A stretch of DNA of 62,952 nt, the filler included, from Klebsormidium nitens (taxonomy: Eukaryota; Plantae; Klebsormidiophyceae): the NCBI GenBank assembly GCA_000708835.1. It is 4 parts of 4 records of this genome, joined end to end, with 100 filler letters (N's around TTAATTAATTAA, not from the genome) between each part and the next. Parts side by side here need not be neighbours in the genome. Positions count along the whole stretch, not along the records: positions 41,785 to 59,864 come from DF237955.1; 3 more parts are not named here. One strand, written 5' to 3'. Under the pieces are notes generated by a model. It had not been told where the DNA came from. It did not search any database and saw nothing but the letters and a program-made list of their open reading frames with translations. Shown here in pieces: positions 36,301 to 58,459 of the stretch (position 1 is the first letter of the stretch; every line of letters begins with the position of its first letter). Made by a program: the position numbers and the translations under genes.

Positions 36301-37715
36301 AGGCGGCCCGTGTCGCCCGTGGCAGCCACACAGGCCTTGACGCGCTCCAGAACCGCTGCTGGGGGAGTCAGCCGAGGGTCTTTGATTGGACGAGGAGGTC
36401 CAAACAGTACAGCCTGCGGCTCACTGCATAAAAGCGGGGCGCTCTGTTGTTGAAATCCTGGAAAACTGGATTGTAGTTGCTAGCACTTTGAATGACCGGA
36501 TCCGAAGTAGACTTTGTGAATAGAGAGACAGAGCCCCCCGAGTCTTTAGCAGAAGCCCGATCGGACAGTGAGCTTGAAAGCCATCAAACGGACCAGATTT
36601 ATCAATCTGAGAAGCATGGCATGCGTGCCACCGGTCGCTAGTGCACAGGGTCTAGTGGCCATCATCGATTAATACCCTACAAGTAGAGGCAAGCAAGCCT
36701 TGGACCGCAACAATCATTAAGATACTTTTAGCAGCTTAAAGACGTTTCAACGGTCTTGCTAACACTCCCAAATCTATAGAAGCGTGGAGAGGTCGGAAAA
36801 ATGATGCTTTTCAATCGCCTTCGCTGACGTAACTTCTCAAAGACACCAAAAGGTGCGCTGAAGCTTGGACAACACAGACATGCCCAGTCAAAACCAAATG
36901 CCGAACCAATTGAACTCAAATGGATTGCGTTACACTCTTCTACTCGTATCAAATATCTACCGGATGCAGAAAAGATAAAGTCAAAGACGACTTCAAGGCC
37001 ACGTATGGAGCACTGAGTAGTACATACCGGGCCCCATCACCATCCCAAGGCACCCGCCCACGGCCGCTTGGCGCTTCGCCGCTGTCGTTCAAGATGCGAC
37101 TGAGCCAGTCGGGCGCGGCTCGGAGATTGGAGCGGTTGGGCAGAATCTCGTGGTCCCACTTGTAGCAGCGCAGCGTGCCGTCGAGGCCCGTGTAGCTGCT
37201 AGGTGCGGTGTACAGCATTCCCCGCCTTCCACGGACATCAATGCCCACCGCTTTGCCCTTGTACCGAATCTTTGCCTTGTTGGCAAGTTGCACAGGCCGG
37301 CCTTCTCGGACAGAGACAGAGAAAAGAGGATGTGCAGTCCTCCATTTCCTTGGAGGACTCGCGGCGTGTCCTCCAAAAACCCTCCATGCTCTTCGAGCAT
37401 TTGCTCGAGTGCTTCGAAGCCCCCGTCCTTGACGTCAACATCGAGAGCATAGATGTCCGACTGCTCCGTGATAATGGCGATAGAGTTGCGCCCTGGCTTG
37501 GCAAACTCCTGGAGACAGTTGCCAAGGTTTGCCTCCTTCCAAGGCTTGGACTCGGAGCCCCAATTGCACGGCTGCTTCCGGACTTGACCGTTTGGAAACT
37601 GCTTTTCGAGAAGGTCGTGGGTGACTGTCACAACGCCAAGGCTGTGGAAATGATGAGCGGCGGCCAGGACGGAGTCGATCGCCAGTACAGGAGCTTCGAT
37701 AGATGGGCTCAGTCC
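33309..37715 (-). pseudogene. Primase-helicase copy 1: Prim-Pol + Zn ribbon + D5_N + SF3 helicase + wHTH; at least 3 spliceosomal introns; inactivated
   Basis: Prim-Pol motifs YALDVDVKD, GLHILF, GIDVRG; Zn motif RCPYGNHHDSSNNF..LLYCCNSSEC; introns 35340-35846, 34589-34919, 34124-34434 restore RYR|LRFDRESWWYW, DFM|GTNYP and Walker A GAG|GNGKG; Walker B LAVTDE; motif C QTNYPP; ERRL. Lesions: frameshift ~37280, TGA at 36233-36235, frameshift ~35210, TAG at 34956-34958. Confidence 0.9.
35499..35756. repeat. 81-bp tandem array (3 units + partial), inverted relative of the 32.6-kb array, inside the 35340-35846 intron
   Basis: tgatgacgtcagcaat...gaaaagttgg...cttggacacttggacac at 35499, 35580, 35661, 35742; reverse complement matches the 32694-33037 unit core. 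Confidence 0.9.
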
Positions 37716-37802: not shown

Positions 37803-38043
37803 TGATGTCAGCAAAAAGTTTCCACCCAAGAGTTTGGCAAAAGCTTGGACACGTGGACACCTGTTGTATCGAGCCTCGACTCCGAGGGTCCGTGTCGAAA
37901 GCACAGGAACGCCGAAGCGTTTAGCAGATGTATGGACCGTCCAGTTGGTCGGACTGTGCAGAAGAGTCGTTGAGGAACTGGAGTGATGACGTCAGCAAAG
38001 AAAATCCCCTCCAAAAGTTTAGTAAAAGCTTGGACATGTGGAC
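37803..38043. repeat. Two further diverged copies of the same motif between divergent primase and YR-like genes
   Basis: gatgtcagcaaa...aaagcttggacacgtggacac (~37803-37860) and tgatgacgtcagcaaa...aaagcttggacatgtggacag (~37983-38043), each followed by tgtatcgagcct. Confidence 0.7.
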
Positions 38044-38318
38044 AGTGTATCGAGCCTAGGTTGTCTTATGGAGAAAGTGACGGAAGCATGAAAAAACTGA
38101 GGCGGATATCTGAACTGTCCTGACTTTATTGACGTGTCGTCAAGAAACTGGTGCACTTTTCTCCAACAAATGCCGCTGCCGATAGCATTTTTCAAGATAT
38201 AAATGTTGTGCGACTTTTCCTTGTCATTATTTTATGACATCAACGGTTGATATAAATAGGTCTGCACGTCTGGTCATGTGAAAATTATTGTCGAAGCTCT
38301 ACTATATGATCAATAAGT

Positions 38319-39149
38319 ATGGATGCCTTGCGTCAGCTGTTCACCGACAACATTCGAACTCAGGCATCCGTTGATCAATACGTAAGGGGCATTGCCCGTA
38401 TCTATCAATTGTGCCATGATCGACAACTATCCAATACAGATGATTTAAGCTTTTTGGAAACAGACGCACACGTTTTCACTCAGCTCGTGCATGATCGATA
38501 TGCAAATCCTGGATCAAGAAGGACCCGATTGGCCCCTTTTCTTGCCGCTTGTAAAAAGCTCGGAAACTCAGAAGCTTATCAGATTTATTTACAGCCCTTT
38601 CAGAAGGATAATCAGCCGTTGAAAGAACTTCGTGAGGAACAAGCCGCTGAATCGGGGCATGACCCTATGAAACAACTCGAGATGTCACGTGAAGACATTG
38701 ATCTTTTGGGTAGCAAGCTTGCCTGAAAGGTCCGATCTTTGTCACACGTTGTTGCAGACGACCTCGACAGAAAGGATGTGAAAACCATAATGATACATTT
38801 GCTCGTTGAATGGCATCTTCTGATAAAAAAGCACGTCAGACGAGGTGTGAAGATCTATCATTTACCTATCATTCTCAAGAGGAGTGGAGGCCAGCACGAT
38901 GACACCGAAGATGCACTGATCCAGACAAGTCGGTCAAATAACACGATTTGTTTACTGAAACAACAAGAGTTGTACGAGCTTCCAACAATGTTTTGTAAGT
39001 ACCTTGCTAGAACGTTAGAGCTCATCCCTCGAGACTTTTTTATAACCTCAGTGTCTGATCCGCTAACACCAATGTCAGGGAGCAATTACAGCAATTTCTG
39101 CGGTAAGCTTCTTTTCAACGGAAAGTCACTCAATCTTGAACGCATCTAA
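38319..39149 (+). pseudogene. Degenerate or truncated tyrosine-recombinase paralogue
   Basis: ORFs 38319-38726 and 38739-39149 are in the same frame, separated by one TGA. N-terminus (SVDQYVRGIARIY...DDLSFL...LAPFLAACKKL) aligns with both intact YRs (TVEQYCARVMRLF...DSLDWV...LSPLLVIARKL). C-terminal LLRH/MGH/Y motifs absent. Confidence 0.65.
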
Positions 39150-39228
39150 CTAGACTTGTTTTCTAGCCGAAAAATAAATCTAACGATAAGTTTAGCTGAA
39201 GGACTCCGGCTGCGAAGCTACAAGAAAG

Positions 39229-40332
39229 ATGGCCACACGGGTAGTTCACATCGAGGGGCCACACAATCAGAGGAAGGCATCGCCATCGCAGTTACCAAAA
39301 CTAAGGAGCATCCTCAAGGTTAAAGATGGTCGTGATGGTTCAGAGGCAACTTTACGGGCCGACTCTACCGTGAATGTATACCTCCGCCAGATCCTAAACA
39401 TATACACAATTCTTAACCCAAACCAGCAACTAGATGACGATGTGTCTATAGATTGGATAAAAGATTATGGAACCGTGATAAATGCGATCGAAAGTTTGTT
39501 AGACAGAAAAGGAAAACCCATCAAATCGCTTACAAAAAGTTCTTATGCGGCACCATTTTCAATCCTTGCTCAGAAGAAGGGCTTCGAGGACGCACAACGA
39601 GCGTACGGTGATTTCATTGAAGCAAAAAAGCCTACCGAGGTCGAGCTGGATGAAACAATGCAACGCAAGACACCAAAGGAGCTTGAAATGTGGGTGCCTT
39701 GGAAAGAAATGATCAAGGTAAGAGACAACCTTGATCAGATTATCACACGAACAATCATTGAAAAATTTAGAAATGGTCGTGCATTGACGCGTAGCGATAA
39801 AGAACTCGTTAACGACCATTTGATCCTAAGCTTGTACACAATGCCTCTCGGGCCCCTACGGAACGAGTTTGGGAGTTGTCGAATTCTCATAAAGGAGGAA
39901 ACTGAAGAATTTGAAGCAAAACCTGGTGACATCAATACATGTATTCTAACAAAGGATCTTGAGCATTGCCAATTTGTTATCAGCAGCCACAAGACACTCA
40001 ACAAGGTGGGCATACGGAGATTGCACATTCCTGAAAATCTAGTCAATGTCATTCTTCGAAGCTCTAATCTCTTTCCAAGATACTACTTGGTCATGAAACA
40101 TTACTATCTTGGCTTTAAAGATGAACCAATCAATAATTTTACCATTGTACTGAACGATTTGGGTCAACGTCACTTTGATAAGAATCTATCGTGCACGTTG
40201 CTCCGTCATATTTCGCATACAGAGCTCACACCCAATTTGGGTTCCCGAGGGGAGGTACGAAAAAAGTGTGAATGGATGGGGCACTCGCTTTCAACGGCAC
40301 TCAATCATTACGAGCGGCGGTGGTCACGTTGA
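39229..40332 (+). CDS. Tyrosine recombinase (PLV/virophage/NCLDV-type)
   Basis: 367 aa; catalytic-type motifs PLRNEF (R), SHKT (K), LLRHI (R), MGHS (H), NHY (Y) in the correct order. Confidence 0.9.
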   Translation: MATRVVHIEGPHNQRKASPSQLPKLRSILKVKDGRDGSEATLRADSTVNVYLRQILNIYTILNPNQQLDDDVSIDWIKDYGTVINAIESLLDRKGKPIKSLTKSSYAAPFSILAQKKGFEDAQRAYGDFIEAKKPTEVELDETMQRKTPKELEMWVPWKEMIKVRDNLDQIITRTIIEKFRNGRALTRSDKELVNDHLILSLYTMPLGPLRNEFGSCRILIKEETEEFEAKPGDINTCILTKDLEHCQFVISSHKTLNKVGIRRLHIPENLVNVILRSSNLFPRYYLVMKHYYLGFKDEPINNFTIVLNDLGQRHFDKNLSCTLLRHISHTELTPNLGSRGEVRKKCEWMGHSLSTALNHYERRWSR

Positions 40333-40416
40333 TCCGCACTTGATATACAGGTGCGCGTTTTTTATCAAAAACAATTTCTTTCTCTGGAAGTAACGGTAGT
40401 GTCGTTGCCGTGCACC

Positions 40417-40650
40417 ATGACTGGCAATCACGACCACTCAGGCTCCACTTTGTGTGCAGCATGCTTGGAATCTGCAAACTATAAGGAGGAACAACAAGCC
40501 AAAAGCAGGACCTATGCACACGCATATTATGATTCTAACAAAGAGCGAATACTGCTCAAGAAAGCTCTTGAACGAATGGAGAAGGGTGTTCGAGTCAACA
40601 GACGTACTATGGAACGTTTACACGAGGCAAAGATCTACATTGCTGTCTAA
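40417..40650 (+). CDS. Small His/Cys + basic-helix protein, copy 1 (77 aa from ATG 40417)
   Basis: HDH..TLCAAC...AYYDSNKERILLKKALERMEKG..NRRTMERLHEA; homologous to 46616-46939. Confidence 0.75.
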   Translation: MTGNHDHSGSTLCAACLESANYKEEQQAKSRTYAHAYYDSNKERILLKKALERMEKGVRVNRRTMERLHEAKIYIAV

Positions 40651-40806
40651 GCATCGTAAGTCACCCTATTTAGATCGTGTAACAAACATCTCAACATATC
40701 CTTCCAGCACTCATATGGAGATGTACCATGTTGTGCCACTCTCCCTCTGAGATGCCAGCAGCTTGTGGATTGTGGACCTGTCGATCGAGTGTCGTGTTGA
40801 AGTGTT

Positions 40807-41683
40807 ATGATGCTTCGTGCATACAATGAAAACCATTTGGAAATCTTGAGAGGGTTGTTGTTCATAGGCGCGCCGTGGACTTCGGATGGCTTAGGGCGCG
40901 TTTCAATACCAAGAAATTTTTCTAGAATAGAAAATATTGCACAGTGGCCGGAGATGGAACTGTTGAAAATATTCGAGGAGTACGCTAACGAAGGCCTGTA
41001 TGCTATTCCGGCAAAGGCTTTACTAGGGCAAGATGGGTGTAGTAAGAGGGTACTCGGAACTATGCCACATGCGAACGGGGGCACAGCTATACGGTCAGCT
41101 TCCGATTGGAATGCTTCAAAGAAGAGAATGAAGGAATACGTACACGAAAAACAGTTCAATTCTATCGCAATCAAGACTGGCTGTATATCGGATGTATACG
41201 TTCTGGATATTGATGTCAAGGACAAAGAGGACGAAGACGTATCGGCTGGAATGCCGTTTTGGAAGAGCTTGATTGACAAACATGGAGAGCCAAACACGTT
41301 AAAAGCAACTACTCCTCGTGGCGGATTTCATTACTACTTCTCGTTTTCGAGCATCCTCAAAGATGGTCTCAAGTCCGGTAAGAACTTTGTGGGTGTAGAT
41401 GTGAATGGTCAAGTCTATGGAATTGATGGTCGTGGTGAAGGGGGAATTGCGTTTGCTCCACCGAGCTCGCTTGGCAATGGAAAAGAATACAAATGGAATG
41501 TCACACCGAAAAGGACCAATATTGCAACCGCTCCAGCATGGGTGATTGAACTCATAAATACTTCTGCTAGACGAGTTGGTCGTAACGGACAGATAGACAT
41601 ACATGACGCATCCCGAATAGTGCGTTGTTTAGAGCTCAATGAGCAGGACGAGTCGTTTCTACACACCGCTTTTGCAGACGAAG
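40807..41683 (+). CDS. Prim-Pol (bifunctional primase/polymerase) N-terminal domain, truncated by a gap
   Basis: YVLDIDVKD, TPRGGFHYYF, GIDGRGEGGIAFAPPS, YKW...APAWV; closely parallels the N-terminus of 43650-46511. Confidence 0.9.
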
Positions 41684-41784
41684 GNNNNNNNNNNNNNNNN
41701 NNNNNNNNNNNNNNNNNNNNNNNNNNNNTTAATTAATTAANNNNNNNNNNNNNNNNNNNNNNNNNNNNNNNNNNNNNNNNNNNN

Positions 41785-42895
41785 CCAGCCGTACGCGGCC
41801 CTCCTTCACGCGCTCCTCATCCCGCGCTACTCGTGGGTGTTTGGTCATGTGGTGACGCTGAGGTTGCTTCGCCACCTGCTGCTGGAGGGGCCACTCGACG
41901 AGCGAGGGATGGCGTATCTCTCTAACGACGGCCCCATGCTGGCGGCCATTTTGCGTCTTCACCCCGTGGCAGGGGGGGTGTACGCCTTCCCGCCAATGTT
42001 GCGCCCCCTCATTCGCGACATTTACGCCGTGAACCTCCTCTGCTTCGAGCCGAGCGGGAACCGGCCCCGCTCCTCCTCTTGTTCGCCTTTGGCGGCTCTC
42101 CATGATGCCACCGAGCACTTGTGGACGATCGAGGGCGAGAAGCTGAGGCTCGTGGGCCAGCTGGACGCGGCGGCCATGGAGTACGCGGAGCGGCATGGGG
42201 CGGCGCTAAAGCGGGCTGCCAACTCGCTCATGTTCGAGCTCGAGGTTCGCGAGCCCGAGTGCTATGGGGTGGGGGGCTTCCTCTCGGCGCCGTCGGCAAC
42301 TTATGCCAAGCGGGTCGCAGCCGTCTCGTCGTACGATTTCCACCCTTTGCTGTACGGGCGGCCACGGTTCGTTGATTGGGAGGATGAGGCGGGCCGTGGC
42401 AAAAAGGGATCGGAGGAGCGGCTCACTCAACACTGTAGCGCCCCAAATCCACGGTCGTCCAAGGGCCGTGCGGGGGTCTTCATTGCTTGCTGCCAGGACC
42501 GAGCCCCTTTTGGCTACCATTGGCTCAAGGGGGGCGAGTCGGTGTCGGACTTAGGGACCGTTTTGCTCACGAGGTTCCCGTTTCGGACGCTGCGGGGGCT
42601 CACAATTGTGGAGGATGCCGCGTGTAATGGCCAAGAGTGGTTTTTGAATCGGGTGCCGCAGCTGGCCAAGTTCATGCTGTTTGCCGTCGATCGCTTCCAC
42701 TCGGGGCCCGTGAGTTGCGCTCCATCGGGGGCAAAGCGCTACGCGACGCACACGTGCGCCCCAACCCTTTTTATCGATTCCTTTCCACAACATCGCCAGA
42801 CGATCACGACAGCTTCGGAGGGCATCAACTCGGGGTTGAAGAGATGCGCGGTTAGCCTTCAGCAGATCACGAGTATTAAGCGGCTGCTGAGCTGA
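41785..42895 (+). mobile_element. KDZ (Kyakuja-Dileera-Zisupton) transposase fragment
   Basis: GVFIACC...GYHWLKGGES...LLTRFP...IVEDAACN...LNRVP...FAVDRFH...C...ASEGINSGL matches my recollection of the KDZ core; 5' part in the gap; ends at a TGA beyond which the frame continues. Confidence 0.75.
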
Positions 42896-43340
42896 GTCAC
42901 GACCATCCTCGATACTCTCTTTGAGCGATCAAAGTACGCAGTTTTCTGGAGCCAAGATAGCAATCCTTTGAGGGAATTGATCAAGAGGGGGCGTTCAAGT
43001 TGAGGGCGTTGCCAATATAGATTAATTGCCACGATCCAACAAGGAGAGTAGCGCGCTTTGTGAAGAGCAATAGCAATTACAGCAGGCGGGTGCGTGTGGA
43101 CTGTTGAAATTCCAAAAAGGCTGTTGATTGGGCTAAGATGACACTTTGTTGTATCGATTGCATGATTCGCTACTGATACAACATCGATACACAAATCTAG
43201 GGCGTGTATCATATCAAGAGAGTACACAATTGGTCTTTCAATGACTTCAAAATCGTTCAAAATGCTTGAAAGTGGTGCCTCAAGGAAGCATGTGCGGTGT
43301 GAGTGCGCGGAAAAAGTGTCAAGAGTATGAGAATCTGGTC

Positions 43341-43466
43341 TGATACAATTGATACAGCTGATACACATAATCCCCACATGCTCCTCTCTATATAGCAATA
43401 TTGTTTTTTTTTGTTGTTAAAGAAAATCTGTATAATATGCTAGTGTATCTTGTATCATCTGTATCA
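43341..43466. promoter_or_regulatory. Putative replication origin: inverted iteron triplets flanking an AT-rich core
   Basis: TGATACA at 43341, 43350, 43359 (9-bp period); 78-bp spacer with a T-tract and AT-rich run; TGTATC(T/A) at 43444, 43451, 43460; two more TGTATCA at 43637 and 43646. Confidence 0.6.
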
Positions 43467-43649
43467 CCCCCAAACGGCGCATCACACTCCACGGCCGCCT
43501 TGTTGCACGTTTTTGAGCCCTCATTGAGGCAAATCAACACCCAGCTTAAGATTTAAAAGTCGGAAAAACATCACAATCAGATCATAAAGTGGAGATTTTG
43601 ACGCTGATTCACGTCCGTTCGAAATGGCGAAATTCTTGTATCAAGTGTA

Positions 43650-46511
43650 TCAGGTCCCTTTGCGGACCTTCCCCTGCGCATCCGTCTGTTTCAATTCCTC
43701 CTCGGTCTTCAAACGGATCCCAAAGAAGCCTCTTCCTCGTTTCCTACCATCGAGCGTCCTGATCATCGGGTTGTTTCCCCCACCCGGCGGCTTTTGCGAG
43801 AATCCCTTCAAGCACATCGCTCTTGCCAATCCGTCACCCGCCAACTTTACGTCGTGTCCGCCCGCATACAAGAAGTTCGTGAAAGCCTCAACAAAATCGG
43901 ACTTGGCAACACTTAAACCCGCGCCCTCAGTCATGCAAGCCTTGTCGTTCTCCTCCGTATACTCCTTTGCCGCCGCGCTAAACTCTTGAGGGACCGGCGA
44001 AAGAACCTTCAAGGCCGGAGCCAATGCCTTTTTGGCGTAGTACATGGTCGCTCCCTGAACGCAAAAGTCGAGGGTGTCTGCTGCACCTGCGTCTGATTCA
44101 AAGTAGGGCTTGAGAGTCAAATCAATTGGTTTGTGATATTTGTTGGTTGCATCAAGCTCGTCGGGATTTTTGAACGTGTAATTGAACATGATGAGCACGA
44201 TCCGGCAAATCAGTGCGCTATCGTCACTTGGAAAGTGTGGTCGAAAGTTGGTGAACAAACAGAGCTTGTACTGAGGCACGTAGCTTTGCGGCTTGCAAAA
44301 TAGCTCGCGCGCATCTAGCTCACCACCGCCGCTTGCCTCCTTCACAAAGGACGCGTGCAACTCTTCGACCCCTTCTGATTCGTCGTTTGTAACAAACCTC
44401 TTTGTTCGGATCTGCATGAGGTGAGTCGATGCAGCAGAAGCATTGGCCTTGAAGGTAGGTTTGATAAAAATGGCCTTATTACCGGCGCAATTGTAGCTTC
44501 CAAAGGCCTTTCGAAGCGCTTGTTTCAACACCCCTTTTCCATTCGCTCCGCTTAAGCCATTGGCAATGACAAAAAGCTCCTCAGACGTCTCACCGGTAAG
44601 ACAATATCCAAGAAACATTTGAAGCCAATCAATCGCCTCCGGTGGAAGAACTTCCATCAGAAACGACCGAAATCTCGCAGTGGGCCACGTGGAAGCGCCC
44701 GAGATATACTCACTCGTCTGATTATTGCAGAGATTGTGAGGATGGTGGGGCAGGAGCTTGCCCGTTCTTAGGTCGATCAACCCATTCGGTGCATTTGCAA
44801 CCGCGCGATCTTGATCGAATTGGTCGAGCAATCCCTCAACACGCAACTCGGTGACCACAGACTGCATACACTTGCGAACGTCGGAAGGGTCCTGGACGTT
44901 GATCTTTCCAAAGCTGGGCATGATCTTGTCGAGCTCCTTCGTGCATGCCTCCGTGGCCATCTTGATCTTCTTCATCTGCTTGGGATTGACCTCTTCACGG
45001 TCGAGACGCTTAAAGACACCGCCAACAACAAAGCCCTCTAATTCAGAACGGCTTGCATACAAAGTGCCCAAACATCTCTCTCGTTGCCGCTCGTACCACG
45101 CCAAGAGACAGCCCATCTGACTTGTGAACACGCCCGCAACCAAGTTGAAGGTGTCATGCACCCATGATGTGCCGCTCCACACATAGAAGAGCGGGCCTCG
45201 GCTCTTTGAATCTGCCTCATTGGTGGTCACGAGGATTCGACCCTCGATCATATACAGATAGGCAAAGAGACGCCCCAAGTTGGCATATGCCTCTGGAGCC
45301 GCATGCTCAACGACGATTCGAAGGAGCAAATCTTGAACCTCTTGGCTTCCTCTTGTGTATTGGGTGATTGTATGCATGTCGTCGTGAGGGTCGACCGGCT
45401 CTGTGGTGGCATCTTGCAAAGCCGCCTTCAAATTCTCCAGGACCCCCAACTTTTTGGGCGGCTTATGGGAGCAATCGACGCCATGACAACGATAGTACAC
45501 GTTGCGCCCCCTCTTGAGCAGGTTGAAATTGTTGCTCCCTGAGTGTTGATGACCAAGAAAGCACCTTCGAGGCCCATAAGTTCGATAGCAATAGTAAGTG
45601 CCGTAGAGGCCATGTGACAACGAGCTCGCGTACGTACTCGTCGAGTCGCCGGCCTTCTTTAACATCTTTGATAGCTCCTCCAATAGAAGCTCTTTGCCGT
45701 GTGGCGAATACGTGTCTGAGATTGTGCCAGTTATCTCAAAAGTAGGACTTTTGGCACCTCCAGGCTGAGATGCCTCGGCGCTTGCTCCCGAAATTCTGTC
45801 AGTTGTTTCCTTTCCCCCCTCGCTCGTGATTGCAGGTTGGCCAGCATGATTGTTGACCAATTTCGCTAGCCAAAATGGCATTTCCTGGCACGCTTCATAG
45901 CTAGGAGGTCCATTGATCCACTCATATGTTGCAAGCTCGCCGTGGGCCTTTAGATAGCTTGTCGGTGGAGCGAATATGACCCCCCCCAATCCTCTTCCAT
46001 CGATGCCAAAGGTCTGCTTGTCAACCTTTACACCTGAAAAGTTCTGTTTCCACGTGAGATGAGGCGAGTCGAGCTTGAAGTACAAGTGCAATCCATGAGA
46101 ACCGGTCCTCGCTTTGAGTGTCTCTGGCTCTCCATGGATCCTAACAAGTTGCTCCCAGAGCTCGATCCCCGGTCGCTTCTCGTCCTTTGCAACTACGTCG
46201 ATATCAACCACGTACACTCTACTAACTCCCGCAAGTATTGCAAGCCCGGTTGCATCTCGCTTTTCCTTCATCATAGGATTGATGGACCGCTCCCATGCTT
46301 CCGGTGTTTTGATGTGTGCATAGCTGTGAGGGAAGTCACCCTTCTTCTTGCTCTTATCTTCATCCCACGAGACAGAGACGGGAAGCGCATATAGGCCATT
46401 ATTGGCAAGTCGTTGGATCTCGTCTCTGATACATCGAGTCCCACGGGCCTTGGGGTCTTTTGGGGCCGAGGCCATAGAGCTGGGAGCTTGGACAGCTGTT
46501 TGCGTGGCCAT
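43650..46511 (-). CDS. Primase-helicase copy 2, uninterrupted and intronless (953 aa): Prim-Pol-ZnR-D5_N-SF3-wHTH
   Basis: YVVDIDV, GLHLYF, GIDGRG; RRCFLGHQHSGSNNF...YYRCHGVDC; NAPNGLIDLRTGKLLPH; Walker A GLSGANGKG; Walker B FVTNDE; ASGGGELDARELF; LFTNFRP. Confidence 0.95.
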   Translation of the reverse strand: MATQTAVQAPSSMASAPKDPKARGTRCIRDEIQRLANNGLYALPVSVSWDEDKSKKKGDFPHSYAHIKTPEAWERSINPMMKEKRDATGLAILAGVSRVYVVDIDVVAKDEKRPGIELWEQLVRIHGEPETLKARTGSHGLHLYFKLDSPHLTWKQNFSGVKVDKQTFGIDGRGLGGVIFAPPTSYLKAHGELATYEWINGPPSYEACQEMPFWLAKLVNNHAGQPAITSEGGKETTDRISGASAEASQPGGAKSPTFEITGTISDTYSPHGKELLLEELSKMLKKAGDSTSTYASSLSHGLYGTYYCYRTYGPRRCFLGHQHSGSNNFNLLKRGRNVYYRCHGVDCSHKPPKKLGVLENLKAALQDATTEPVDPHDDMHTITQYTRGSQEVQDLLLRIVVEHAAPEAYANLGRLFAYLYMIEGRILVTTNEADSKSRGPLFYVWSGTSWVHDTFNLVAGVFTSQMGCLLAWYERQRERCLGTLYASRSELEGFVVGGVFKRLDREEVNPKQMKKIKMATEACTKELDKIMPSFGKINVQDPSDVRKCMQSVVTELRVEGLLDQFDQDRAVANAPNGLIDLRTGKLLPHHPHNLCNNQTSEYISGASTWPTARFRSFLMEVLPPEAIDWLQMFLGYCLTGETSEELFVIANGLSGANGKGVLKQALRKAFGSYNCAGNKAIFIKPTFKANASAASTHLMQIRTKRFVTNDESEGVEELHASFVKEASGGGELDARELFCKPQSYVPQYKLCLFTNFRPHFPSDDSALICRIVLIMFNYTFKNPDELDATNKYHKPIDLTLKPYFESDAGAADTLDFCVQGATMYYAKKALAPALKVLSPVPQEFSAAAKEYTEENDKACMTEGAGLSVAKSDFVEAFTNFLYAGGHDVKLAGDGLARAMCLKGFSQKPPGGGNNPMIRTLDGRKRGRGFFGIRLKTEEELKQTDAQGKVRKGT

Positions 46512-46615
46512 GATGTCTGTACTCTAGTCAGGAAATAATGGGGCTGATTGAAACGCGCTTCACTGCCAACTGCGTTCTCATACTACTTATTTCCGAATCC
46601 TAGTCATAGGGCATC

Positions 46616-46939
46616 ATGGTCCAAAGCACGTATTCCTCGAGTGATATTAAGATCCATCCATGTCATTGCCGTGTCTGCGAAACAAGCCGCGCGTACCAAA
46701 AAGAGCACCATGAGCAACACGCGCAAAACGTTCGCAGGTACTATGGTCGGAATCGAGAGAACATTCTGCTTCAAAAGGCTTACAAACGATTTCTTTCGGG
46801 CACCACAAAGAAACTCCACAAAACAACGGCTCAGCGACTGATTGATGCTGGCTATAAGGTGCCGCAAAATACATGTTTCTCCAAAGAACCCACGGGCCTT
46901 TCATTGGGCGCCTTCACAAGCTGCATCGAAGTGTCTTAA
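46616..46939 (+). CDS. Small His/Cys + basic-helix protein, copy 2
   Basis: HPCHCRVC...RRYYGRNRENILLQKAYKRFLSG..LHKTTAQRLIDA; homologous to 40417-40650. Confidence 0.75.
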   Translation: MVQSTYSSSDIKIHPCHCRVCETSRAYQKEHHEQHAQNVRRYYGRNRENILLQKAYKRFLSGTTKKLHKTTAQRLIDAGYKVPQNTCFSKEPTGLSLGAFTSCIEVS

Positions 46940-46963
46940 GAGGCCGCCAAGTGGTGAGGTTGC

Positions 46964-48016
46964 TCAAAATTGGATGCGACTTCCATCGGGTTTGTACTTA
47001 AGCTCATAGTGGCGCATCGCGATCGGTGCCGTGTGCAACATCGACTTGGCAAGCTCATCTCTCTCATGGAGGCTTGGCGCATCCTTCATTGCATTACTCA
47101 CAGTAATTTTTCGAAGGAGGCACGATCCCAAATTTGAGTCGGGATAAATGGCTGCTAAGAACTTCGTCAGGTACCCTGACCCCATTGGGGCGTCTGGTGT
47201 CCTCATTCGGCTTAGAAGGTACTTTCGTGGGAAAATAGTGAGACTTTCCGCAATCACATTGCAAAGCCGGGTTGGTATGTCAAGAACTTGTGGGCCGTGT
47301 GTCTTGTCCGTCTTGTAAGAGTTGAGATGAAGCCTATAGGTGCCCTTTGCATACTCTAGAAGGTAGTTGCGAGATCCGGACATCAACTCACGTGCGGCAG
47401 CGCTCCCAACCTCTTCGAAGCGCACGATGGGAAGATCGCTCCAATCATTACGAATTGCTGGCATTTGAGTGTACAAACAAAGGACAAGGTATCGGCAAAG
47501 CGTTACCTTGTCCGCAACAGTGACCTCTTCTGGCCTCTTTGGCACAATGGATCGATTGATCTTCCGTTGAAGCTCGACGCGGCGGTGGTTGATTTCGTCA
47601 AGCGTTTTCCAATTCTTGGCTTCCCGTTCTGACATGTGTTGGGCAGGCCGAGCATCCTCCATGGCCTTTCGAACGGCTGTGTATCTCTTGAAGAGTGCCT
47701 CGTAGGTTCGTTGATCACTAGGCCACAATTTTCGAGCAATAACGAGAAGCGGACTTAGGCTCGTAGCTTGAGTTGGTAGCTTGTCGGAGTACACGGTATC
47801 CAGATACTCGATGATCTTGGTCGTATCCTTCACCCAGTCGAGAGAGTCGAAATCCTCCTTTGGAGCATATATGCTCTTGAATAGACGCATCACGCGAGCG
47901 CAATATTGCTCGACAGTGTAAGGTTTTCGCGTCGAATCATCAAACACGTCATGGAGCAGCTGTTCGCCTGATATTGGGGTCCTTATAACCTTTGTGTTTG
48001 CATCTAAAGCATCCAT
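46964..48016 (-). CDS. Tyrosine recombinase (PLV/virophage/NCLDV-type)
   Basis: 350 aa; AIRNDW (R), SYKTDKTHG (K), LLRKI (R), MLHT (H), RHY (Y). Confidence 0.9.
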   Translation of the reverse strand: MDALDANTKVIRTPISGEQLLHDVFDDSTRKPYTVEQYCARVMRLFKSIYAPKEDFDSLDWVKDTTKIIEYLDTVYSDKLPTQATSLSPLLVIARKLWPSDQRTYEALFKRYTAVRKAMEDARPAQHMSEREAKNWKTLDEINHRRVELQRKINRSIVPKRPEEVTVADKVTLCRYLVLCLYTQMPAIRNDWSDLPIVRFEEVGSAAARELMSGSRNYLLEYAKGTYRLHLNSYKTDKTHGPQVLDIPTRLCNVIAESLTIFPRKYLLSRMRTPDAPMGSGYLTKFLAAIYPDSNLGSCLLRKITVSNAMKDAPSLHERDELAKSMLHTAPIAMRHYELKYKPDGSRIQF

Positions 48017-48280
48017 GCCGTATGTATCTAGATACCGAGAAATTAAAGATGCACGGCCGATGACCGCAAGAGGCTCAGATACCGAATATGCGTGTTCATC
48101 TTGCTTTCCACCGTTTTAATGCGCGTAGAAGCTTTTCATGGTTATCTGACGCGGAGAAGCTCCTAAAACCCGACATGGGGGCCTTATCACTTTTCTAGTA
48201 TCGGCCGATAACCGACTTTTGCCAGATACACGAATATGAGTGTACATAATCTCCAAAACGGTGCTTTTAAAGAGATTCAA

Positions 48281-48871
48281 TTATCTTGGAGAGAGATCTT
48301 TCGGAGACTCGTGGGCGAGACGAGCCTTGTTGGGATTTGCAAGCGACTCTAGCTCCAAGATGGGAGCATCACTCCATACCACGCTGGGCGAATAACGGAA
48401 AGATGATGGAGAGCAGGCGTTGAAACTCGCGGGACCAAACGGAGAAATCTCTTCTTGTTCGCGCAATGTGTTTTTCTGCCGTGGCTCGGTCGATCGCAAC
48501 TTGCGCGCTCGACGCCGAGCTTGGGACGCGTTCTTGAGGGCAATTCTCCAGCTCACTTTGACAGCGTAGGGGCCATTGATGTTCGACTTGTCCCAAAAAG
48601 CATGAAAGCCTTCGGCAACTAACGATCGAACCAGTGATCTGGTGATGTGACGAAGATCAAACGGTTCTGCCAAGGCACGAATGCCTCCAAGCGCAGCTAC
48701 GTCGAGCACGGTTTCGAGTAATCCAAACTCTTGGTAAGATCTGACAATTGCGGATCTAGCGGATTCCAACACTTGTCTGTCCATCTGCTGGATAGCAAAC
48801 TGGGATTGTGGCCGAAACCCGAGGATCGCATCCATTCTAAAGCCTAGATTACGTTCGATAAAAGTTGCCAC
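48281..48871 (-). CDS. Hypothetical protein upstream of the second YR
   Basis: 196-aa ORF with an ATG start, co-oriented with the YR; globular-looking N-terminal ~110 aa ending LVAEGF...YAVKVSW; no family recognised. Confidence 0.45.
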   Translation of the reverse strand: MATFIERNLGFRMDAILGFRPQSQFAIQQMDRQVLESARSAIVRSYQEFGLLETVLDVAALGGIRALAEPFDLRHITRSLVRSLVAEGFHAFWDKSNINGPYAVKVSWRIALKNASQARRRARKLRSTEPRQKNTLREQEEISPFGPASFNACSPSSFRYSPSVVWSDAPILELESLANPNKARLAHESPKDLSPR

Positions 48872-49019
48872 AAAATGACCAAGACTCTCTAATCAATGTC
48901 CCAATTCATGTGCCGCTTGTAGCGGCCTTCGAGTTGAACCTTCGTTCCAAGACATGGACTGATCCCCCCATGCTTGACCCCCCATGCCCTTTGTGTCCTA
49001 GTCCGGCCGCTTTTCAATT

Positions 49020-49635
49020 GACCATACCACGTAACATGTTTGAATATTGTAACTCATGGAGCGATTCGACAGGAGGACAGGACGGACAGGAGATTCTCGT
49101 GTCCGTGTCCCGTCTTATGCAAGTTACACCATACTAAAGGATATTCGAACATTGTGACTTATGAGGCGAATCGACATGTGGACAGGACGGACATGAGATC
49201 TTTCCGTGTCCGAGTCCCGTCTTACGCAAGTTACACCATATCTCCTAACATGTTCGAACATTGTGATTTATTGGGCGAATTGACAGCTGGACAAGACGGA
49301 CAGGAGATTGTCCTGTCCGTTGTCCCTCATTTATGTGACAGGTAGGGGCGTACCTTAGATACATACATATTCGCAAGCTCGGCCGAAATCCGGAAAAGTT
49401 CGTATTATATCTGTTATAATTTCTTTCTTCTCCGGGGAAGGGATAATAACAAATACGCAGTATAGAGTTCTCCTTGTGGGATCCAAATGCCAATATGTAT
49501 GTATGCAAGACCATACCCCGAAAAGTTGCAATATTGATGATCGACTTTTTGGAGACGAAAATATAACGGATTAGTAGTACGGAGTTTTCGTTGTGGGATC
49601 CACATGCCAATATGTATGTATGCAAGGCAATACCA
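49020..49635. repeat. Long direct repeat, copy A (3 x ~110-bp GACAGGA units plus an AT-rich block)
   Basis: Colinear with 58870-59610; shared blocks include accttagatacatacatattcgcaagctcgg and accataccccgaaaagttgcaatattg. Confidence 0.9.
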
Positions 49636-49752
49636 AAACAAATGCAACGTCTGCGGAGAACAATGATGATCCTAGTCAAATCTCACATAGTGCTATCAAT
49701 TCTAGTCGATCCTTCCAGGCTATATGCAAGTCAATGATTCCTCTCCTACTCC

Positions 49753-52700
49753 TTATTCCATCTTAACCTCTACCAACTTGAGCGCAAGGCCCTTATACCC
49801 TCGCTCCGTTATGCCGCAATACTTTACGCCGAGGCCAAGTTTGCTTGGCTTGTCCGAACCCGAGAAGCCGTGGTTGTTCATCGCCGACTTCAGGGACTTG
49901 GTGTCGAGCGAGGGGATATGGCCAACGCACTTGCTGCCCACCATCCTCTGCGGGTCGTTGTACGCCTTGAGGGCATCGCTCGTCGAGATGAAGAGGTCAT
50001 CGCCCTTGACGCAGCTGTTTTGGACGAAGTTGTCGAAGTCGTCGGCGGCCTCTTCGTAGTCCTGCAGGGCGTCCATGCTCCGCATCGGCATGGGGTACAG
50101 CTGCTGCCCGTTCTGGTACCACTTGACCGCTCCTGCGACCAGCCAAGCCCGCAACTCCTGCATGTTCTGCAAGGTGCTCAGCTTGGTGAGAAGTCGCGTG
50201 TCCACCAGCCCGTGCAGCGGGTTGGCCGGGTCGTACCCCTTCTCGTGGGGCGAGAAGTAGCGCCGCACGAAGCAAACCAGCTGAAGACGGCGCCGGAGGG
50301 CGACGGACCAGGTCTTGTCCGTCCGCGGGAGGTAGTTCGTGCAGATGATGAGCTGCAAAAAAGGTTCGAGAAGGGCGCAATCAGAATTTTGTTGGCTCAT
50401 TCCCACGAATTCGAGCATGCCACGTGCTCAAGCCAACAGATTCGAGCATGCCACGTGAGATCAAGCCCTCTTGCTGCTGACAAGAGATCGTATCATGTTG
50501 CTGCCGGATCGAAGTCATTCAATTGCAAGAGTTCGATCGCAATCCATAAGTTGGCCTCACCAGAACGGTCGAAGTGAAGGTGACGTAGTCCCGGAACAAA
50601 GGCCGAGCGGTGATGACGTCGCCGCCGGTGAGCTTCTTCATGCCGGCCTCGTTCAGCGAATCCGACCTCTCGGTCTCTTCGACCGCCGCAAGTAGCGCTC
50701 CGGCAAGCCCTGCACAAAAAGCAGAGATCTTCCGGTCAAAACACTGATGCCAATTCACGCACATTGGGCAGCCCCGAAGACAGGATCGACAGGACGAGAA
50801 TCTGCTGGCGGACAAATTTTGCATTTCCTGCCACATTCGATGAGGAACGAGGTAAAATGCTCAGGACATTGAAGTTTGCAGGACGATCCGACGGGATCGA
50901 CAAGACAGACACGAGAATCTGCCGTCAGACAAACTGTCATGCATCCCTAAGCAAATAAGATGCATCATCATTTTAAGTTTTGGGAGAGAGAGGGAGTTCT
51001 GGTGAAGTCTCACCTGCTTCGAGCGGCGAAGCGGCCCCCTTGTGGGCGGCTCGCTGCCCTTTTGAGCTCACCAAAATCTCCTTGCCAACATCCTTGAAGG
51101 CGGCGCCGAGGAGCTTGCGCAGCAGCGCGAGAAGCAGGCTCTTGCCCGCGCTGCCCTCGCCAACAAAGATCGGCAGTACCTGAGAAAGATCACGAGAGAC
51201 TTTACAAGGCTGCAGATGCTCGGCGGCCACCTTCCACGAAAGTCGTCTGCTGTGACCATCACCACAGAACGGGGAAGCGCCAAGACCTTCGACTGAATGG
51301 CTGGCAATTGATGGGCCGAAGATTCGCGATCCTCCACAGCTAAGTCTTAAAACGGCCTCATGCGGTCGTAGGGTCCTTGACGATTGAAGCAGCACGTAAT
51401 CACTCAAGTCCGTCGAACCTTTGAGCTCACGAGTAAGCATTTTAAAAACTGGTAGTACGAATCCAGTGCTACCTACAAGTTACTTCTGTAACTAAAGCAG
51501 AGTTGGTTGATAGCAGCACCTGCCTGATTGCTTGTGTGACCGGTCAGCCCGTACCCGAGCAGCACCTGGAGGTGCTCCAAAGCGGCCGGCCCATCCTCTC
51601 CGGAAACGTGCATGATGTCCTCCAAGAAGCGCACCATCTCGCTCCTTGGAACCAACGATCCAGCGCGAGGGTACGCCCAGTCGATCACCCGAGTGTTCAT
51701 GAACTGCGAACTGTTTTCGACCTGACTCCGGTGGACTTGGCCAATGCCTCCATAAACACAAACTTTCTGCCGAAGTCCCTTAACTGATCTGCGTTTTTTT
51801 GCACACGGGCACAGATCCATCCCTCACCCGAGGGTGATGCGGAAGCAGCTCGCCGGTCCGCAAGGTCGATGACGCCGTTCGCCACGGCCAAGAAGTCCTT
51901 CTGCACGTCCAACAGGGACTGGAAGCCGGGCTGATAGAAGTAGTCCTTGCACGTTCCGATGATGTTGGACATCTTCGCGTTGAAGTTGACGTTGATCAGC
52001 CTCTCCTCCCTCTCCGTCTTACGCTTCTTCCCGCCACCTGCCGGCTTCGACTTGATCGCACCCCATCCCCCGTCCTCGTCCCCTCTCGATCCGTCTGCCA
52101 CAGCGATCGAGACCCCTCCTCCCCCCCCCTCCTTTGCCTCGCGTATGTACTCGGCCTCGATCTTGGAGAGCTCCTCGCGGAGCACTCGCAGGATGCGGCC
52201 GCCGCTCTCGTCCTTCGCCCAGCTCCGACCAGTCCAGTAGTACGAGCCGGAGGAGGTGAAGGCGAACTTGAGGCCCGTCCGGACGTAGAGGCGCTCCAGG
52301 ATGACGGCGCCACCCACGTCTCCTGCAGATATGGGGAGATCGCATTAGGAGGGAGTGCAGATACGACCGAGATGAAAGTGCTTCCTAGAAGTTAGCGCCT
52401 CATTCAAGGGCCCCAAAACGGGTTTGCAGGGGCGAGAAGGCAGATGGTAAGCAATTCATTCCAAGACTGCGCGGTTGTACGCCCAGTCGTTGCTTCTGAG
52501 CTAGTCTGGCTCTCAAGATCGACGACCGTAGGCATCATGCAGATACGAACGAGAAAAAGTGTCTCTTTTAACTTCTCACATTTACAAAAAGGTGAAAAAC
52601 GGGTCTGCAGACTCCGTCAAAACGCAATGAAAAACAGGAGACTGAAATCCAAATCGCAGTTGTAGGACAGGCCTTAGAGCTGCTTCTCAAAGGAGGTCTC

Positions 52701-53221
52701 GGGAGGCAACATTCGAAGCTCACCTTTCCTAATATTCAGATTCTCTCGCAGAAACGGCAGCGGCAGCAGCTGCCGGTCGGAGTAGAGGTGGTTCCGCTCG
52801 CTGTTGAGCGGCTGACTGTCGCCGAAGGCCGCGGCGATCGGCAGGGGGAGAACGCCTAGGCTGATGTTGCCTGACTGCGCGGTGGCCTCGCAGCTCTCTG
52901 CGTAGCACACGTACGTCACCTCGACCCCCTGCCGAAGGAGCCCAAAGGCGTCGCTGCCGTGCACGCCCTCGCACGTCGCGGCGAAGTAGGGGCACGTCAC
53001 GCGCCCGCCAGGCGCGTTCCGGAACTCGTAGATGACCCCTATGCCCGTCGAGGACGGCTTGGCGCCGCAGAAGACCGAGGTGCTGTCGCCCCAGGTCGAG
53101 AGCAGCTTCTCGAGCTCGCGCACCACCTCGGTCTGGAGCTCAACGTTCGCCAGATCCGGCTCTCTGGTAGCACGGGACACCTCGGGGCTCCCCAGCTTGC
53201 AGGACCGGTGTGCCGCCGCCT
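49753..53221 (-). pseudogene. Helicase copy 3: ZnR-D5_N-SF3-wHTH with at least 5 introns; one frameshift; no Prim-Pol exon found upstream
   Basis: Introns 52323-52723, 51704-51827, 51180-51523 (GC-AG), 50710-51013 and 50353-50560 join KG|DVGGA, HHPR|FMN, TSNQ|VLPIFVGEGSAGKS (Walker A), EAG|LAGALLAAVEE (Walker B) and TVL|LIICTN; ALRRRL; +1 frameshift near 51862 (IDL/RTGELLPHH). Confidence 0.9.
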
Positions 53222-54109
53222 GTAGGGGATAATTCCTTGTTAGTAGAAAGAAGATTGCCCCTCAAAATGACTAGGGTCTGTGGCCGAAAGCCTGGGAACG
53301 AACTCGGACAACAGCTGGGCGGAAATCGGTCTGGTCACCGCTCAAAATCAGCACCTTGACTTTGGCTTAGAAGCAACTTGACCGCACCCCCACATACCAG
53401 CCCAACCGCGGGTCAAGATGGGGCAAATACCAAGGCCACGGCAAGGCCGAAACAATCTGATTCGCAGCCCAAAACACCCGACCACGGCCCCAAAATAACT
53501 TAACCACACGTCTGAAATCAGGCCCACAGCACTTAAAGAAAACCAGCGTAATCCGGCACAAGGCCGAACCACGAGCTCGAAACCAGCCTCGCAATGGATC
53601 CTCAAGCGAATCCAAACACCTAGACAAGATTCTTTTTGAGGTACTAGGGCGCAATTGGGATCCGCTTGGAAGTACCAGGCTTGATCTAGGACAACCGATC
53701 CAGTTAAGGCATCGTGAAGAAGAATCGATGCCAATTCTGGCCCACGAGTTGGCAGCAAGAGCGACTGGAGAAGTTGAACCTCTGAGTGAATGTACATGAC
53801 CAGAACGTCATCGATATTTCTGATGCCTGCTCACACATCGTTTGGAAAAACTAGATGGAGACGCACCGTTTTCACTACCTAATGCTTGAGCACATTTCAG
53901 CTGAAGTGACTTGATCGAATGTGGGATCCTTACCCCAATGGTCACGGGCCCCGAGTCGCACGACGTCTCAGCATTCGACTCTGCATCTCCGGCCCCGTCA
54001 CTCTCCATCCCGTCTGCGCGATCCTCACTGCGCATCTTCGCGCTTGGCGAGCCACCCCCCTCTGCTGCACGTGATAGGGTCGGGGTCACAAGCGGCGGCT
54101 GATAGGAGA

Positions 54110-54850
54110 AACACGTGTCCATGCTGTCCGTCCTGTCTGCCAGAGCACGAACGGCGACACGCAGGAGAATATGGCCGACGACGGGATGCTGTTCGTCCAG
54201 TCCGCCATGGAGGACAGGCCGCAAAGAGATCCGCAAAGAGATCCAGCACATGCCCCCCACTTATCCCAATGCTGAGGGGGCTTGCGCTCGACTCCGCACC
54301 ACCAAGATGCCGCATCTACTGCCTCTATCTTATGCCAATCTGTTTGATCACTAGTCGATGACCTACCTCGTTCACTGGGTCAGCGGTGTGCGCGCTTGCA
54401 CGAGGGGAGCCACCAGAGGCGTCGGCAACCTGCAGGAGAGGAGTCGGAAGTTTTGAACGGTGACAGGAGAGACACGTGTCTATGCTGTCCAACTTGTTTG
54501 CTAGAGCACAGACGGAAATATGTATGAGAGCATGAAGAAGACAAGAGAAACACGTGTCCTTGCTGTCCGTCGTGTCTGCTGCTGGAGTGAAGCGCACATG
54601 ACACAAGAGCACATGACACAAGGACTGGGGCATGCAAGATGGCCTTACTCCATCACTCTTGGGGCCTGCGCACAAAGGGGCACCACCGTCTCCGCCTATC
54701 TCCACCTCGTCCTTCTCATCGGCGGTGTGCGCGCTCGAAGGAGGCAAGCGGCCCCCCACCTCTGGAGAGCACCCTCCAGGTACCTGTGGACAGAGAGAGG
54801 GGATGACAAAATGGAACAGAAAATGACGTGTCTCTGCTGTCCCTCCTGTC
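54110..54850 (-). repeat. Four dispersed inverted copies of the GACAGGACGGACA motif
   Basis: tgtccgtcctgtc exact at 54125-54137; variants at ~54485, ~54563, ~54837, each preceded by (a/g)cacgtgtc or gacgtgtc. Confidence 0.7.
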
Positions 54851-58238: not shown

Positions 58239-58459
58239 GAGCTGAAGCTGGACACATATCCTCCATGCAGAGCTGCCATGGGCTGCCACCCCTGCGCCAA
58301 TTCCTGCCACTGCCAGCTCAGCACACCCCACAGAAAACTGACCAAGCTGAGCTGGAGCTGGACACATGTCCTCCATGCAGAGCTGCCATGGGATGCCGCG
58401 CCTGCGCCAATTCCTGCCGCTGCCAACTCAGCACACCCCACAGAAAACTGACCAAGAGC
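58239..58459. repeat. 110-bp tandem duplication
   Basis: gagctg(a/g)agctggacacat...cagaaaactgaccaag at 58239 and 58349. Confidence 0.85.

Follow-up and report, generated by a model that had tools for sequence, protein, structure and literature searches.

The window analysed here, a stretch of 62,952 nucleotides from Klebsormidium nitens to which all coordinates refer, holds a primase-helicase gene of 953 aa at 43650..46511 on the minus strand. Its product comprises a Prim-Pol domain, a zinc-binding-like region, D5_N, an SF3 ATPase and a C-terminal winged helix, and is 99% identical to a K. nitens gene model. Convergent with it lies the 3' part of a KDZ-like transposase gene (41786..42895, plus strand), whose 5' end is lost in an assembly gap; its Atlas assignment is 0.94, with KDZ on 47-95% of cluster members. 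On the opposite side of the helicase gene, a small ORF of 107 aa (46616..46939, plus strand) is 33% identical over 61 aa to a small ORF at 40351-40650 in a second module. It is followed by a multicopy tyrosine-recombinase-like ORF of 350 aa (46964..48016, minus strand) of the PLV/virophage type, copies of which sit on contigs equal in length to those of helicase relatives. The nearest Atlas clusters of this ORF are viral, mostly Preplasmiviricota (0.98), one of them with Phage_integrase on 16% of its members, and, by eye against the consensus, it presumably shows the catalytic R-K-xxR-H-Y pattern. Pfam gives no match for the KDZ-like ORF or for the recombinase ORF. A Pfam scan without PLV-specific profiles also identifies no capsid protein or packaging ATPase among the 29 ORFs of the window that it covered; genes may be concealed there by introns or by the gap at 41785. 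Neither a tRNA target site nor a long inverted repeat bounding the module is found in the window, the left side of the module stopping at the assembly gap. No RNA dataset among the matches listed carries the window sequence, and no circle or empty-site joint is among the joints listed, which come from assembled contigs alone and say nothing either way.

A repeat array lies between the two convergent genes. Three TGATACA copies at 43341, 43350 and 43359 (43341..43365, plus strand, periods of 9 and 9 bp) point towards a spacer of 78 bp (43366..43443), which is 71% AT, contains a T-tract and is the likely unwinding element. The 50-mer of lowest GC in the entire window is found inside this spacer (43389-43438, GC 0.16). 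On its far side stand three inverted copies, TGTATCT at 43444 and TGTATCA at 43451 and 43460 (43444..43466, minus strand), with periods of 7 and 9 bp, so that the core consists of 3 + 3 opposed iterons around an AT-rich centre. Two more TGTATCA copies, at 43637 and 43646 (43637..43652, minus strand), are 9 bp apart and overlap the helicase stop codon, whose TGA (43652-43650, minus strand) doubles as the opening triplet of the 43646 iteron. An outer, less conserved cluster (43150..43211) has copies at 43150 (-), 43174 (+), 43185 (+) and 43205 (-), those at 43150 and 43185 with one mismatch each. On re-checking, the iteron coordinates, the 9-bp periods, the spacer length and the stop-codon overlap of the initial annotation are all borne out, and the further copies it placed at about 43150-43210 are the four of the outer cluster. 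A degenerate copy, TGATTCA at 43605..43611 (plus strand), is additional to those it had recorded. In total, 12 GATACA cores lie at most 510 bp from the helicase stop, one of them overlapping it.

The array is genuine and greatly exceeds what chance would give. The window contains 14 copies of TGATACA against a shuffle mean of 4.3, a number reached in 0 of 100 shuffles, and nine of the 14 fall in 43174-43652. For GATACA, 12 copies are observed in 43140-43655 and 0.20 are expected. The layout of a repeated word pair followed by its inverted pair occurs only here in the window for any 6- or 7-mer, and none of 60 shuffled windows gives such a layout for any word.

Alignments with related algal contigs indicate that in diverged paralogues the repeat blocks persist as the flanking DNA drifts. 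The right core trio is retained as an island of 26-28 bp (43443-43471) in diverged paralogous contigs (runs X1, X3 and X5), a size below 30 bp at which the comparison counts as weak. In one of them, a contig of 2978 bp, the KDZ end is joined to a 28-bp island, which stops at 43471, and to the helicase end, the remaining spacer being unalignable; in a second one the island is 26 bp long and starts at 43443. Alignment of a contig of about 80% identity covers 43261-43457 and 43591-43661; between these blocks it has 131 unalignable letters where the window has 133. In an orthologous contig, none of the 27 substitutions listed, of 34, falls in the left core trio, nor in any of the 42 core positions (P about 0.10, not significant alone). 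At 43635 and 43645, the flank and the 2-nt spacer of the stop-codon pair, differences are present in related contigs, and a related contig reads a perfect TGATACA at 43605 (X5 record 11, a loose end). The outer cluster is variable: a C>T at 43185 completes a copy, a T>C at 43207 breaks one, and there is a 4-nt insertion at 43151. Differences in run X11, including the one at 43351, were excluded from natural variation because they are solely C>T and G>A, the pattern of a bisulfite-converted library. Run X12 spans 43096-43222 only, and in the short stretch X1 yields its own contig only.

The helicase had been described as intact. The open frame of 953 aa stands, but its intactness is doubtful: the encoded protein lacks seven residues in the first helix, at the start of the C-terminal winged-helix domain, which are present in all relatives covering the site, and because these are missing from a DNA-binding domain it is probably not intact. 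Apart from this deletion, four departures from near-invariant columns are observed. A C stands at a position where 12 of 12 relatives have R. The window copy of the element is probably decaying. The family itself is, as judged from profiles and predicted models, folded like SaPI5 PriRep and D5, winged helix included. SaPI5 PriRep (7OLA) is matched at E 7e-47 by a profile that includes phage members, and ASFV C962R at E 1e-19 by a profile of the algal family only. The predicted model of an intact paralogue, P0012 (pLDDT 83.6), contains the C-terminal winged helix and can be superposed on 7OM0 across residues 54-538 (Z 24.0, rmsd 4.9, 357 aligned); the full-length model of the window protein is poor (pLDDT 50.9). 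In a comparison with 21 proteins, the algal C-terminal profile picks out in L027 an RFX/Pox_D5 winged helix (E 1.5e-8). A representative protein search shows the close family to be small and brings up over 30,000 distant D5-like relatives, and protein-seeded locus scans of viral, metagenome and genome collections found no relative.

The same layout is found in public sequences when the motif itself is the query. The pattern TGATACA-N2-TGATACA-N70-100-TGTATCA-N2-TGTATCA matches 39 loci (13 viral, 18 metagenome and 8 genome), which form 19 groups by array similarity, the 13 viral loci making up only four of them; no group resembles the window array beyond the motif. A primase or helicase gene lies at most 1 kb away in 13 of the 19 groups, at or inside its 3' end in 11 and at its 5' end in two, as scored on ORFs of at least 150 aa near the array in at least one representative of each group (for L008 and L035-L037, identity to scanned members gave the assignment). 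Group L020/L028 carries the Prim-Pol + D5_N architecture of the algal protein. In L011/L013 the primase-helicase is 5.2 kb from the array, and in five groups (L018, L019, L021, L031 and L038, two contigs being shorter than 1.5 kb) no primase-helicase is present in the available DNA. The spacer is richer in AT than its locus in all 19 groups (mean +0.13). Extra heptamers beyond the pattern occur at 5.6 per kb within 300 bp versus 0.11 per kb in more distant DNA; among 36 close same-strand neighbours, a distance of 9 bp is seen in 16. A shuffled heptamer, an 8-bp period and a 10-bp period, searched in viral_contigs only, each give 0 matches. The predicted sibling heptamer TGTTACA retrieves 31 loci in 16 groups, nine of which have a primase or helicase gene within 300 bp, with 31 of 44 candidate ORFs scanned. 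An outward-facing layout is also found, at three loci on two contigs with two beside a replication gene, and the orientation of the array is therefore not strictly fixed. The 1064-aa ORF by outward array L015 was considered as a helicase and ruled out, since it has a lipase domain only.

Based on these data, the array is likely to be a SaPI/P4-type iteron origin of replication for the element's own primase-helicase, a reading to which we give a probability of about 0.8, because the same layout and heptamer adjoin related genes in unrelated viruses and plasmids of bacteria and archaea. The cognate origin proposed in the initial annotation is supported by independent comparison: heptamer, 9-bp period and AT-rich core recur near such genes, and algal paralogues retain the repeat blocks. 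We infer the following course of binding, melting and copying. Docking through its C-terminal winged-helix domains onto TGATACA repeats on both flanks of the core, the helicase would load SF3 rings and melt the AT-rich core, and priming of synthesis would next fall to the fused primase-polymerase, as has been shown for SaPI PriRep. The replicated unit would be an excised composite of KDZ transposase, origin, primase-helicase, small ORF and tyrosine recombinase, and an intact paralogue could act in trans. Some observations count against the origin reading. The helicases beside the arrays belong to different families (VapE, D5/DUF5906, DUF3854 + AAA_25 and RepA-like) and no recognition residues common to them are evident by eye, so that one heptamer across such different families is left without explanation. 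Furthermore, the gene of L042 has a counterpart in pKEF9 with 67% identity, and the 5-kb stretch of pKEF9 examined contains no TGATACA. Among the matches listed, the open-access literature yielded nothing on TGATACA as an origin motif.

Several characterised systems resemble the algal locus in part. ASFV C962R and poxvirus D5/E5 are the nearest solved structures to the algal family but have another primase domain and another genomic setting. In phage P4, ori1 and crr consist of opposed iterons around an AT-rich core and are bound by the winged-helix domain of alpha; however, the iteron differs from TGATACA and ori1 is not known to lie beside the alpha gene. A close parallel is the SaPI pri-rep-ori, for which PMC9371898 describes short iterons directly downstream of the gene and opposed around an AT-rich centre, so the analogy drawn in the initial annotation is accurate. 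SaPI/PICI elements (SaPI5 PriRep, 7OLA/7OM0) share with the alga the iterons 3' of the gene, the fused primase and SF3 helicase and the winged helix. In contrast, the algal array lies in a streptophyte nuclear genome, is multicopy, and is accompanied by a Prim-Pol primase, a PLV-type recombinase and a KDZ transposase; its heptamer is TGATACA with a 9-bp period, and no helper phage is known. With its helicase matching a K. nitens gene model, the locus is not a phage satellite in a bacterial chromosome.

The inverted repeats could also form a hairpin origin of the pRN1 type, with a long stem and an AT-rich loop at which the primase-helicase assembles, which we regard as unlikely. As described in the origin sections of PMC4234260, the essential origin of pRN1 is a 100-nt stem-loop just 3' of the gene for ORF904, a Prim-Pol/SF3/winged-helix protein like the algal one. 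The segment 43335-43472 folds at -15.2 kcal/mol (z -3.4), and the 2-nt spacers are complementary in 10 of the 19 outside groups. However, such folding is expected of any inverted repeat, over 43335-43660 as a whole the folding does not surpass that of shuffles (z -0.6), the window arms are asymmetric (periods 9,9 versus 7,9) with non-complementary 2-nt spacers, and many additional direct copies lie outside the stem. According to the same sections, pRN1 needs structure with little conservation of sequence (PMC4234260), whereas here word and spacing recur. The role of such a hairpin would be that of the iteron origin with a different mode of recognition, and the two are compatible.

Less probable again, and quite improbable, is an attachment site or terminal repeat for the tyrosine recombinase, perhaps doubling as an origin as in PLV end modules. 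In the core sites of recombinases, 6-8 bp separate the members of an inverted pair, whereas 78 bp lie between the array halves. The order of repeats, primase-helicase and tyrosine recombinase does match the PLV end module in the main text of PMC11296320, the helicase is D5-like, and the recombinase is nearest to Preplasmiviricota clusters. That main text presents no iterons, and there the double role of the long inverted repeats as recombination site and origin is a hypothesis (PMC11296320). At the algal locus, no capsid or packaging gene is seen among the scanned ORFs, and a KDZ transposase lies beyond the repeats. The helicase is the feature that most outside loci follow, and only a few (L024/L033/L040 and L039) were seen with an integrase nearby; since homology among the algal copies runs past the array into the KDZ gene, the array is no obvious element end.

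It is very unlikely that the neighbouring KDZ transposon uses the repeats as subterminal binding sites. The KDZ 3' end is found 250-450 bp from the repeats; paralogous contigs contain this end together with the 43443-43471 island, and one of them is not seen to reach a helicase. On the other side, prokaryotic elements show the layout and the scans reported no KDZ gene there, two repeats overlap the helicase stop and remain linked to it in relatives, and high-copy KDZ similarity fades near 42993, short of the array. No KDZ/Zisupton terminal repeat with target-site duplication is found as a boundary at the array in the assembled contigs. Least credible of all are host transcription-factor sites, a bidirectional 3'-end signal or chance: the array does lie between two convergent stop codons and contain a T-tract, but shuffles exclude chance, and these readings give no account of a layout that recurs with identical phasing in phages and archaeal elements.

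Returning to the iteron origin, the K. nitens element is multicopy and unites the primase-helicase with a tyrosine recombinase of PLV type and, in repeated cases, with a KDZ transposase gene convergent to the helicase. The KDZ gene recurs beside the helicase in other copies and therefore is probably a part, or the usual target, of one element and no chance neighbour, which points to a composite mobile element. Among the matches listed from the open-access literature, no description of such a composite element is found. Only tentatively do we suggest, as a joint claim, that this is an undescribed capsid-less self-replicating composite transposon of a eukaryotic nucleus and that TG(A/T)TACA pairs at 9 bp are a searchable origin code that winged-helix primase-helicases share across bacteria, archaea and eukaryotes. 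The parts of such a transposon would be the KDZ transposase, the iteron origin, the Prim-Pol/D5 helicase and the PLV-type recombinase. To our knowledge, origins of eukaryotic PLV-type and D5-type replicons have so far only been hypothesised. The array offers a base-resolved candidate from a nuclear genome, that of an alga near land plants, and natural variants spare its repeats. An iteron origin behind a primase-helicase is already known from SaPI; the eukaryotic composite setting is unusual, and the heptamer is common to domains of life. Since motif and 9-bp spacing retrieve primase-helicase loci without a protein query, TGATACA may predict origins; the loci retrieved in this way comprise phage, plasmid and archaeal sequence.

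Re-reading of the window coordinates confirms all repeat positions of the initial annotation. Three exact copies of TGATACA are found on the plus strand at 43341, 43350 and 43359, and three inverted copies on the minus strand at 43444 (TGTATCT), 43451 and 43460. The spacer between the two trios is 78 bp long, and the lowest-GC 50 bases of the whole 63 kb sit inside it. A further inverted pair lies at 43637 and 43646 (minus), the copy at 43646 overlapping the helicase stop codon, and an outer repeat group occupies 43150-43211. One degenerate copy, at 43605, had been missed. The contig bearing the array is 41785-59864; the parts on either side of the fixed 100-base gap spacers (30491-30590, 41685-41784 and 59865-59964) need not be neighbours.

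We propose, with a probability of roughly 0.8, that this array is a SaPI/P4-type iteron origin of the adjacent primase-helicase. Helicase hexamers would load onto both trios via their winged helices and melt 43389-43438, after which Prim-Pol would prime synthesis; the outer copies would act as accessory sites. The template would presumably be an excised form, with either recombinase or KDZ transposase as the excising enzyme. PMC9371898 describes SaPIs as having 6-12 short iterons directly downstream of rep, at least two of them on either side of an AT-rich centre and in opposite directions, and a winged-helix domain that is required for binding. Measured against that description, the window array has the positional features of a SaPI origin; it would work in the SaPI/P4 manner and is not a SaPI. 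The core array also folds with a z of -3.4, which favours a hairpin origin of the pRN1 type (PMC4234260), a reading that we consider improbable beside an iteron origin.

The primase-helicase ORF (43650-46511, minus, 953 aa) carries Prim-Pol and D5_N domains and shares 99% identity with a Klebsormidium nitens gene model; its family is multicopy and has metagenomic relatives. Upstream of it are a small antisense ORF and a recombinase-like ORF of 350 aa (46964-48016, minus); the Atlas clusters closest to the latter are viral and for the most part Preplasmiviricota. Past the array, and convergent with the helicase, a KDZ-like transposase is represented by its 3' part (41786-42895, plus), to which Pfam gives no match. 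The arrangement recurs in other copies. A 2978-bp paralogous contig contains a KDZ end and a helicase end in the same order as in the window, and KDZ and helicase gene models have consecutive locus numbers on another contig of 25,390 bp. Helicase and recombinase relatives are found on contigs of equal size (77,129, 102,329 and 6,906 bp). KDZ and recombinase relatives are likewise seen on contigs of equal size (38,027 bp); the gene models behind these KDZ links are P0055/P0012 and P0054/P0052. One gene model, P0011, is a recombinase-helicase fusion. Several GATAC/GTATC near-matches are present upstream of the recombinase at 48017-48300, a stretch found in many copies among the reads.

The gene order equals that of the PLV end module described in PMC11296320, and the end-module hypothesis put forward there would make the repeats recombinase or end sites, a reading that we regard as slightly less probable still than a hairpin. 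A Pfam scan of 29 window ORFs shows no PLV capsid genes; no terminal repeats are found around the module, whose left side lies at an assembly gap, and no element ends there or in the aligned contigs. Subterminal repeats of the neighbouring KDZ transposon are a highly improbable reading. Host signals or chance are the least probable explanation. TGATACA occurs 14 times in the window against 4.3 expected, nine of these within the 480-bp stretch of the array; GATACA occurs 12 times in 43140-43655 against 0.20 expected; and the array word is the sole 6- or 7-mer in the window whose direct pair is opposed by an inverted one, a layout found in 0 of 60 shuffled windows.

The DNA pattern TGATACA-N2-TGATACA-N70-100-TGTATCA-N2-TGTATCA, used with no protein query, matches 13 viral loci, 18 from metagenomes and 8 from genomes; similarity of the arrays sorts them into 19 groups. 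Desulfosporosinus, Paenibacillus, a Bathyarchaeon and Stygiolobus are among the hosts named. A primase/helicase gene is present within 1 kb of the array in 13 of the 19 groups. The array lies at or inside the 3' end of the gene in 11 groups (the L001 group, L017, L020, L022, L023, L024, L025, L032, L034, L039 and L041), with weaker assignments for L017 (E 7e-8), L034 (helicase not SF3) and L025 (30% identity to pIT3 RepA), and at its 5' end in two (L002 and L005). The gene is 5.2 kb off in one group, and no primase/helicase is seen in five, two of which are contigs below 1.5 kb. Spacer AT exceeds locus AT in all 19 groups, heptamers in excess of those built into the pattern are 50-fold denser close to the arrays, and the commonest heptamer spacing is 9 bp (16/36). 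In the viral contig collection, a shuffled heptamer, an 8-bp period and a 10-bp period each give 0 matches. Orientation is a weak discriminator, because the outward layout also occurs there (on 2 contigs, at 3 loci of which two adjoin replication genes, versus 13 inward loci in 4 groups). The sibling word TGTTACA gives 31 loci in 16 groups, in nine of which a primase/helicase gene lies no more than 300 bp away. Two results count against the origin reading: no TGATACA array is found, in a 5-kb stretch, behind the gene of pKEF9, which is 67% identical to that of locus L042, and comparison of the winged helices by eye reveals no common recognition residues.

Three of the loci (L025, L042 and L075) are Sulfolobales conjugative-plasmid-like, and in them the array follows a RepA-like gene at a distance of 240 bp; pKEF9 has a CRISPR-like repeat array at the corresponding position. 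A 22-kb low-GC viral contig contains two outward TGATACA arrays 8 kb apart (L015 4001-4118 and L016 4001-4126), one of them behind a 1012-aa primase-helicase and near a packaging-ATPase-like ORF. This contig is possibly a PLV-like virus using the TGATACA word.

The algal-family profile of the helicase matches ASFV C962R (E 1e-19) and D5/E5, and a wider profile including phage members has SaPI5 PriRep as its top match (7OLA, E 7e-47). Modelled at pLDDT 83.6, the intact paralogue P0012 superposes on C962R with Z 26.6 and rmsd 3.1 over 370 aligned residues, and its residues 54-538 on PriRep 7OM0 with Z 24.0 and rmsd 4.9 over 357, the C-terminal domain included. The C-terminal profile of the family matches an RFX/Pox_D5 winged helix. 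The window helicase had been described as intact. Its frame is open, but it lacks seven residues forming the first helix of the C-terminal winged-helix domain and deviates at four near-invariant columns. One of these is the leading R of the RR motif, whose second R, also near-invariant, is retained. The deletion is genuine, since a source-like contig equals 41785-46075 without difference and 170 letters of the window correspond to 191 in a paralogue. This copy, though an open frame, is probably impaired.

Among algal relatives, two paralogous contigs retain a 26-28-bp island at 43443-43471, covering the right trio, while the remaining intergenic DNA is unalignable; sides this short are flagged as weak. 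A contig of about 80% identity aligns at 43261-43457 and 43591-43661, with 131 unalignable letters in place of 133 between them. Changes seen in three contigs at 43635 and 43645 fall beside and between heptamers. Across 43092-43599 an orthologue differs from the window by 34 substitutions, and 0 of the 27 shown fall in the six core repeats (P ~0.10, not significant alone). One of its substitutions completes an outer copy and another breaks one, and its end has a perfect heptamer at 43605. Most contigs of the bisulfite-like run X11 aligned at 43080-43700 match the unconverted sequence at 90-99% identity, which hints weakly at heavy methylation; the sample is biased, as unmethylated reads would not align.

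The nuclear, multicopy, KDZ-linked setting of such an origin in a streptophyte alga is apparently new, as is the occurrence of a single heptamer, spaced at a single period, in different domains of life; no report of either turned up in a search of open-access papers.

At least four primase-helicase remnants cluster in the region. Tandem arrays of 71 bp and, inverted, of 81 bp (32607-33035, 35499-35755 and 37846-38044) flank a second, broken D5-like helicase (33309-37631, minus) and contain TGTCCA/TGGACA pairs at an 8-bp period, possibly another iteron word. Plasmid pIT3 has TGTCCAT repeats directly after its repA gene. The second module (38319-41685) comprises a broken recombinase-like ORF, a recombinase 26% identical to that at 46964-48016, a small ORF and a Prim-Pol running into the assembly gap. 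A third helicase (49753-53180) is also broken. Directly 3' of it, at 49019-49640, high-copy repeats of 105-109 bp contain GGACA words and, inverted, TGTCC words, and may mark an origin or the end of an element; they are found again 10 kb away at 58886-59610. Fragments of a LINE-type endonuclease and reverse transcriptase occupy 60395-62951.
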